Assembly: GCF_000027125.1 (NCBI RefSeq)
Contig: NC_017626.1
Source: Escherichia coli 042
GTDB lineage: Bacteria > Pseudomonadota > Gammaproteobacteria > Enterobacterales > Enterobacteriaceae
Direction: 5' to 3' (one strand)
Length of the DNA stretch: 64,000 nt
The number at the start of each line of letters is the position of its first letter. Within the stretch, counting starts at the first letter, position 1. Under the pieces are notes generated by a model. It ran no database searches and was not told the origin of the DNA. It saw nothing but the letters and a program-made list of their open reading frames with translations. Position numbers and translations under genes: made by a program. Shown here in pieces: positions 23,842 through 24,045 of this stretch.

Positions 23842-24045
23842 GGAGGTGATACTGACCGTCTGCCCGAATTCGTCATAGAGGAAAAACGTCGCGCCGCCCT
23901 CCGGGTCAATTTCACACACCGGAAGCCGGTCTTCACTGAAGCGGATAATGGTGGTATGCCCCAGCGAATCAGTCATCTCCAGCTCATGGCAGAAATCATT
24001 CCATACAAAGTGGTAGTCGTAGTACCCGCCGTCGCCCAACAGCAA
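23842..24045 (-). pseudogene. Rhs-like YD-repeat remnant (tentative)
   Basis: Short ORF with YDY...YDEFGQ motifs resembling Rhs core repeats, directly adjacent to the H-rpt; no start or full domain. Confidence 0.3.

Follow-up and report, generated by a model that had tools for sequence, protein, structure and literature searches.

The short Rhs-like fragment that abuts an H-rpt insertion sequence in the 64-kb stretch of Escherichia coli DNA analysed here (hereafter 'the window') is most likely the first ~65 codons of an 'orphan' rhs module that was decapitated by that element (H-rpt, or ISEc1, a member of the ISAs1 family), and that now persists as a non-functional pseudogene fragment (the 'stump'). 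Its closest full-length relatives are the T6SS Rhs effectors of Citrobacter sp. FP75 and Lelliottia sp. WAP21. It is ordinary debris of a known kind of system, raises no new question and calls for no new mechanism.

The original prediction had described a peptide with YD-type repeats at 23842-24045, and the strings that it quoted (..GDGGYYDYHFVWNDF..FFLYDEFGQTVSIT..) are found exactly in the product (MLLGDGGYYDYHFVWNDFCHELEMTDSLGHTTIIRFSEDRLPVCEIDPEGGATFFLYDEFGQTVSITSQGKIIRSTLFVLNNSHFMFTN) of an 89-codon open reading frame with a TTG start that runs on the minus strand from 24045 to 23776. That frame is a chimera: its first ~66 codons are derived from an rhs gene, and its last 22 codons (SQGKIIRSTLFVLNNSHFMFTN) and stop codon are read out of the end of the H-rpt element, because the terminal inverted repeat of the latter (..GATCTTTCCCTG) ends at 23841/23842. 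The predicted limit at 23842 is therefore the true edge of the stump on the H-rpt side, and IS ends matching the sequence from 23841/23842 onward are found in over 5000 E. coli genomes. As delimited by homology with rhs genes, the remnant of the Rhs core (the 'YD-repeat shell') spans 197 bases (24039..23843, minus strand, encoding GDGGYYDYHFVWNDFCHELEMTDSLGHTTIIRFSEDRLPVCEIDPEGGATFFLYDEFGQTVSIT), or 64-65 codons in an ungapped, in-frame alignment. It is equivalent to codons ~466-530 of the 1384-aa Lelliottia Rhs protein, and the homology ceases, at codon ~531, at the exact base where the ISEc1 inverted repeat of the adjacent copy (copy 1) begins. The frame is open across all 64 Rhs codons, with two stop codons in the same frame just 5' of the 89-codon ORF. 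RefSeq places a 66-aa version of the coding sequence here (23976..23776; hypothetical protein WP_000132348.1), and IMG names one cluster member of the ORF 'YD repeat-containing protein'.

The stump has a GC content of 54%, compared to 32% in the toxin tip and immunity cassette that flanks it; a GC-rich core set against an AT-rich extension is the classical signature of Rhs elements. A scan for promoters and terminators returned nothing above shuffled expectation, with no promoter-like site 5' of the stump on its strand, and an Rfam scan of the island gave no matches. No N-terminal delivery region (PAAR, DUF6531 or similar) was found in the 64-kb window by tblastn with six Rhs proteins, and the frame is closed upstream by stop codons. 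Also absent are the RHS core domain with its PxxxxDPxGL cleavage motif and the C-terminal toxin, the homology ending at the IS and the gene not being continued beyond it, as well as a toxin tip and a cognate immunity gene belonging to the module; past the IS, the ORFs match no family.

A phmmer search with the stump against 1.84 billion representative proteins returned 5652 matches at the threshold employed (E<=1e-3), most of them to giant proteins aligned over many stretches, and a single-stretch match to residues 467-530 of the Lelliottia Rhs protein (WP_230353967.1, Lelliottia sp. WAP21, 1384 aa) with 91% identity and E=3e-35. At the level of DNA, bases 24036..23845 align without gaps and in frame with codons 467-530 of the corresponding gene (84% of nucleotides and 58 of 64 amino acids identical; dS 1.14, dN 0.041, dN/dS 0.036). 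A pattern scan of one genome per species identified an even closer full-length protein in Citrobacter sp. FP75 (61/64 amino acids, 86% of nucleotides), and orphan fragments from Salmonella are 81-90% identical in nucleotide sequence. Across these relatives overall the alignments are ungapped and in frame, with 81-90% nucleotide identity, 88-95% amino acid identity and dN/dS of 0.03-0.05, values which indicate that the ancestor of the stump evolved as coding sequence under strong purifying selection. In a direct BLASTP comparison with the Lelliottia protein the stump peptide scored 134 bits, against a mean of 16.3 bits (16 +/- 2) and a maximum of 23.1 bits for 200 shuffled versions.

The Lelliottia protein itself is a complete effector, comprising a DUF6531 domain, seven RHS_repeat stretches (Pfam, 3e-49), an RHS core domain (TIGR03696) with the DPxGL motif and a C-terminal polymorphic toxin domain, and its gene is part of a T6SS cluster, immediately after hcp, vgrG and a 540-aa gene. 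Over residues 223-1100 the protein aligns with Rhs cocoons of solved structure (for example 7Q97), which places the stump within the Rhs shell. Judged by these alignments, the stump is a genuine piece of such a shell, matching a full-length protein codon for codon and directly abutting copy 1; the idea of an Rhs-like remnant adjacent to that H-rpt copy thus holds. A match to the W-D-G-D / Y-Y-H-x-D region, at the core's 3' end, was considered and proved wrong, the fragment mapping to codons 466-530.

Searches with family models behave quite differently. The bare 66-aa stump matches nothing in Pfam or NCBIfam, including RHS_repeat (PF05593) and TIGR01643 (YD_repeat_2x), so that such models are unable to settle the identity of the fragment. 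The 89-aa chimera scores 17.2 bits against TIGR01643 (cut-off 15.8), a marginal match over a stretch that includes IS-encoded residues, and gives a sub-threshold match of 12.9 bits to TEN_YD-shell in Pfam that disappears when the IS-encoded tail is removed. The IS interrupts the E. coli copy precisely at the point that corresponds, in the Salmonella homologue, to the start of the first RHS_repeat unit (FFLYDEFGQ..). A word-indexed protein search with the stump found E. coli fragments only; its negatives are weak, because it missed the 91%-identical Lelliottia protein, a cluster representative in the very same collection. Of the two checks that had been proposed for the Rhs assignment, a search against the Rhs repeat family yields a false negative, as does an alignment with the K-12 rhs core, where the score with RhsA (23.1 bits) is not above the shuffled controls (maximum 26.2 bits).

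The amino acid identity of the stump to K-12 RhsA and to the Rhs protein of strain ATCC 8739 is about 27% (23-35%; 26-35% for RhsA) and is distributed over several registers, which represents repeat-level similarity only, and tblastn with either protein leaves it undetected in the window (for the ATCC 8739 protein, at E<=1). When blastn was run in 'distant' mode against 5426 complete E. coli genomes, the 197 bp were found only in 147 genomes that carry this same structure, and a megablast of the whole Lelliottia rhs gene against the complete E. coli genomes gave no match; the Rhs lineage from which the stump derives is thus one that complete E. coli genomes do not otherwise show. It is the T6SS-associated lineage of Citrobacter, Lelliottia and Salmonella; the core is not of the K-12 type. 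The stump resembles classical E. coli Rhs elements in layout: as in K-12 RhsB, RhsC and RhsE, an H-rpt sits directly beside an Rhs core, and a GC-rich core contrasts with an AT-rich extension, but the 3.7-kb core of the K-12 type is missing and the lineage is another. By comparison with the complete, 1384-aa-class effectors of Citrobacter and Lelliottia (encoded after hcp-vgrG in the latter), the window retains 5% of such a gene, and there are no T6SS genes near the stump, unlike in the Lelliottia cluster.

Between two H-rpt copies lies a segment of 0.86 kb that contains the Rhs stump, an intact SUKH-3 gene and what is left of a toxin gene, the order on the minus strand being H-rpt copy 2, deaminase tip, SUKH-3, 23 bp, Rhs stump and H-rpt copy 1. 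The deaminase-like toxin tip (24527..24706, minus strand) comprises the C-terminal 59 codons of its gene (PWAVNNCAEID...PNCRNC...) and matches the Pfam YwqJ-deaminase model below the cut-off (E=3.5e-4). Cut by H-rpt copy 2, it is devoid of its N-terminal half and of the Rhs core that it would be fused to, and it shares 88% identity with the end of a Salmonella deaminase ORF (120 aa) that is found just after a 726-aa Rhs core ORF. The SUKH-3 immunity gene (24063..24524, minus strand; 153 aa; Pfam SUKH-3, E=5e-12) is intact, and equals in length the Salmonella gene that follows the same deaminase tip (81% nucleotide and about 84% amino acid identity, dN/dS 0.065). It is the sole element between the IS copies that could plausibly still act, as an orphan immunity gene. 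From its stop codon to the start of Rhs homology there is a junction of 23 bp (24040..24062) without counterpart in relatives; the Salmonella equivalent is about 236 bp. The deaminase and SUKH-3 pair also occurs in Salmonella enterica and Xenorhabdus bovienii, in both cases within Rhs arrays (and, in Xenorhabdus, downstream of vgrG-DcrB-rhs). A 1153-bp contig (JAIJJM010000895.1) in a species-representative 'Collinsella sp.' MAG is 99.8% identical to window positions 23704-24856, and is almost certainly mis-binned E. coli DNA resulting from an assembly break at IS repeats.

The same order is seen in a Salmonella array (S. enterica GCA_037560425.1, positions 5591-9603 of locus L006). It consists of the 726-aa Rhs core ORF (of the Citrobacter/Lelliottia-type lineage), the deaminase domain, SUKH-3 and then, 162 bp further on, a 258-aa orphan ORF that holds the stump's segment (GDGGWYDYHFAWND..FFLYDEFGQTVGIT); further RHS repeats lead from there to a truncated AHH nuclease, and Imm11 comes next. 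Another orphan of this array, with 90% nucleotide identity to the stump, begins at almost the same point of the core, 45 bp beyond an ankyrin-repeat gene. The succession of a toxin tip, an immunity gene and a mid-core Rhs piece is therefore normal for orphan arrays in this lineage. The array also looks rearranged around one core position, since its 726-aa Rhs ORF begins at about codon ~590, which is likewise where the core piece of the downstream orphan is fused to the C-terminal part of the AHH nuclease; the deaminase domain and the Rhs core ORF are in different frames.

Like an orphan module, the stump is a 5'-truncated core fragment that begins 23 bp after the SUKH-3 stop codon on the same strand, in the order seen in Salmonella. 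In the orphan rhs fragments described to date, the toxin is usually preserved along with the 3' end of the core. Because the stump starts in mid-core and has lost its 3' part, we infer its orphan status from the gene order shared with Salmonella at a single locus, and not from the fragment itself. The different junction lengths (23 bp and ~236 bp) may mean that the E. coli and Salmonella arrangements are independent in origin, or that a further deletion has taken place. Compared with the orphan rhs modules of Salmonella Typhimurium LT2 (PMC3967940; the 'C-terminal tips' of PMC3032704), the stump is alike in being a 5'-truncated core after an immunity gene, without start or export signals, on the same strand as the cassette and with a GC-rich core beside an AT-rich tip and immunity gene; it differs in that only ~65 codons are left, that it begins in mid-core and not near the 3' end, and that no main rhs gene of the same lineage accompanies it. 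In intact arrays, orphan core pieces carry a stored toxin tip together with the homology for switching the C-terminal toxin of the main rhs gene (Koskiniemi et al. 2014, PMC3967940), and recombination between main and orphan rhs through the shared core is the established route for activating stored tips (PMC3967940).

The boundaries of the cassette are set by the two H-rpt/ISEc1 elements. Copy 1 (22550..23842, minus strand), which truncates the stump, has terminal inverted repeats (TCAGGGAAAGAT) and an intact 378-aa transposase (23697..22561; NCBIfam transpos_ISAs1, E=8e-122; Pfam DDE_Tnp_1). Copy 2 (24707..26770, minus strand) is defective: its left terminal repeat is short by ~6 nt, it is split by an IS1 (at ~25204-25970, with a target duplication of ~9-10 bp), and in other genomes that lack the IS1 it is annotated as a pseudogene with an internal stop. 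Target-site duplications are absent at copy 1, at copy 2 and around the pair taken as a composite, and neither a continuation of the rhs frame beyond copy 1 nor the N-terminal half of the deaminase beyond copy 2 was found. The lack of duplications, together with the lack of an rhs frame on the far side of copy 1, argues that the IS event was not a simple insertion. IS-associated deletions, as opposed to simple insertions, have shaped the region, in an order that is beyond full reconstruction. Just outside the right end of copy 2 there is, in addition, a piece of ~113 bp (window ~26811-26926, overlapping the 3' end of a 103-aa ORF at 26865-27176) of which copies with 95-98% identity occur in about 2500 E. 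coli genomes, at unrelated sites that carry no annotation, including one beside ISEc40 and BREX/restriction remnants in CFT073.

The same, transposase-proximal end of H-rpt/ISEc1 abuts a truncated rhs gene in three unrelated contexts and lineages, with rhs and transposase co-directional: in the window (at codon ~531), in the RhsC element of an O121 strain (where ..EYDEWGNL runs directly into the IS), and in the vgrG-rhs locus between cusS and nfrB of strain JX21CE35. The junctions lie at 22550/23842 in the window, at ~6009 of locus L011 and at ~6005 of locus L012, and their flanks display no obvious target consensus, three cases being too few to call a preference. One might nevertheless imagine that H-rpt/ISEc1 prefers, or persists in, rhs coding sequence in one orientation and so repeatedly decapitates T6SS Rhs effectors, and that two direct copies could then mobilise SUKH-3 between Enterobacteriaceae as a composite unit. 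That three unrelated rhs lineages meet the same IS end in the same orientation at different core positions, and that the relatives of the 0.86-kb cassette are found in Salmonella and Xenorhabdus and not in E. coli, both point in this direction; we consider the idea a long shot.

The whole structure belongs to an island between nfrB and cusS. The module is near-identical (at least 99%) in 147 of the 5426 complete E. coli genomes, and its flanks are near-identical in the same 147-151 genomes, so that the conservation of the stump reflects recent common descent of one island type and not selection. In ATCC 8739 the cusS-nfrB site holds vgrG, a DcrB-related gene, a 1505-aa rhs gene, small ORFs and an H-rpt that abuts the nfrB flank; in JX21CE35 it holds vgrG-DcrB-rhs-H-rpt, the rhs gene itself being truncated by the same H-rpt end; and in other strains it contains just two or three small genes, one of them of the SMI1/KNR4 family. 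The genome paper on E. coli W lists b0570-b0569 as an Rhs site (site 3) in W and Crooks (PMC3032704). Relative to the vgrG-DcrB(Eag-like)-rhs island of ATCC 8739 and W (rhsW3, EcolC_3079; PMC3032704, Table 6), the island in the window occupies the same site and has its H-rpt at the nfrB-proximal end in the same orientation. It differs in lacking both vgrG and a full rhs gene, in carrying a stump of another lineage, and in possessing WD40/BNR-like genes, a Tox-PAAR-like gene, two H-rpt copies and an extra AT-rich tail of 2.4 kb. The proposal of a decayed-Rhs island is well supported by the truncated tip and SUKH-3 gene alongside the stump, by the vgrG-DcrB-rhs-H-rpt arrangements of ATCC 8739 and JX21CE35 at the same position, and by its published listing as an Rhs site (PMC3032704). 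The claim that the fragment is the island's only trace of Rhs requires some adjustment: no further Rhs core was detected in the 64-kb window when six Rhs proteins of three lineages served as tblastn queries, but the toxin tip and SUKH-3 gene are traces of an Rhs system as well.

The AT-rich tail (20159..22549, minus strand, 33% GC) consists of ORFs that match no family: an ORF fragment that abuts the IS, an immunity-like pseudogene with one in-frame stop, ORFs of 148 and 142 aa, and a membrane-like ORF of 178 aa. Directly beyond copy 1 (21746-22549, minus strand) a 66-codon open frame (AVPYGSGTLREMRLYENHIEF...) is followed by the immunity-like gene of ~175 codons, with its one in-frame stop; these ORFs have a GC content of 32-35%. 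A word-indexed search, the negatives of which are weak, found no homologues of the IS-abutting peptide outside E. coli. The ORFs of the tail probably represent orphan immunity genes. The cusS-proximal half of the island (26865-30871, minus strand) encodes two paralogous WD40/BNR-like proteins of 346 aa (with weak similarity to Tectonin), a 104-aa Tox-PAAR-like protein, and proteins of 336 and 103 aa that match no family, and could be a separate T6SS-type effector cassette. The Tox-PAAR-like ORF (28311-28625) is unrelated to the N-terminus of the Lelliottia Rhs protein.

Several other readings of the stump can be weighed against these data. It might have been left over from the interior of a full-length main rhs gene (Citrobacter/Lelliottia type) once present in this island and trimmed on both sides by two independent deletions or IS events: its position in the middle of the core (codons 466-530) would be an unusual start for an orphan, the 23-bp junction with SUKH-3 is specific to E. 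coli, and the missing target duplications show that IS-mediated deletions have occurred here. This we regard as unlikely, given that the stump follows an immunity gene that reads in the same direction (an abnormal place for the middle of a main gene), that in Salmonella, too, this Rhs segment comes after the SUKH-3 gene and a second orphan starts at almost that point of the core, and that neither N-terminal nor 3' core sequence is present anywhere in the window. The possibility that the stump is what remains of an rhs gene native to the cusS-nfrB site, from a vgrG-DcrB-rhs island such as those of ATCC 8739, W and JX21CE35, is suggested by the shared chromosomal location and by the matching orientation of H-rpt at the nfrB-proximal end. 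It is effectively refuted, and retains very little probability, because identity to the ATCC 8739 protein is a mere ~27% in several registers (tblastn with that protein missing the stump even at E<=1) while identity to the Lelliottia and Citrobacter proteins is 91-95%.

A still more sceptical reading would take the ORF to be a chance frame, or a fragment of some other gene (for example, one for a BrxL Lon-like ATPase) in which Y-D dipeptides are incidental; the failure of the Pfam and NCBIfam Rhs/YD models on the bare 66 aa, the fact that the best Pfam match of the 89-aa ORF is BrxL_ATPase (E=1.7e-4), and a similarity to K-12 RhsA within the range of shuffled sequences would all agree with it. 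Its probability is close to nil in the face of 58-61 of 64 residues aligned ungapped and in frame with bona fide Rhs proteins (E=3e-35; 134 bits, with a shuffle maximum of 23). The BrxL_ATPase and TIGR02688 matches are below cut-off (21 bits against 25 for the former), depend on the IS-encoded tail and vanish without it. It also seems very improbable that the stump is functional, whether as a small expressed Rhs/IS chimera or as a recombination 'landing pad' for incoming rhs modules. A frame that is open over 64 Rhs codons, a 66-aa RefSeq coding sequence and conservation of at least 99% in 147 genomes might be taken as signs of function; conservation is, however, explained by recent common descent of one island type, and the fragment has neither a promoter-like site nor an evident context for a start, it lacks a secretion domain, a toxin and a cleavage motif, and DNA-level searches found no homologous rhs partner in these genomes.

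The account that we favour, of an orphan module decapitated by H-rpt/ISEc1, would run as follows. A 5'-truncated copy of an Rhs shell would have been left downstream of the immunity gene of the previous toxin/immunity cassette. H-rpt/ISEc1 would then have cut this orphan at the equivalent of codon ~531, with the loss of all that followed it (the remaining shell, DPxGL motif, toxin tip and cognate immunity gene), and the deaminase toxin next to it would have been deprived of its core and N-terminal half by a second H-rpt. The stump can probably neither be expressed as a toxin nor recombine; we infer this lack of function from the missing delivery domain, cleavage motif, toxin and promoter-like site, and from the absence of a homologous rhs partner in a DNA-level search of the complete E. 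coli genomes.

For the annotation of E. coli genomes, the 'hypothetical protein' WP_000132348.1, which is found in about 150 complete genomes, corresponds to an Rhs/ISEc1 chimeric pseudogene, and the small ORF beside SUKH-3 to a truncated deaminase-type toxin tip. The cusS-nfrB site emerges as a hotspot for the turnover of T6SS effector and immunity cargo. Here E. coli keeps an intact immunity gene along with the debris of an Rhs lineage of Citrobacter, Lelliottia and Salmonella, a small example of immunity genes outliving the toxins that they accompanied.
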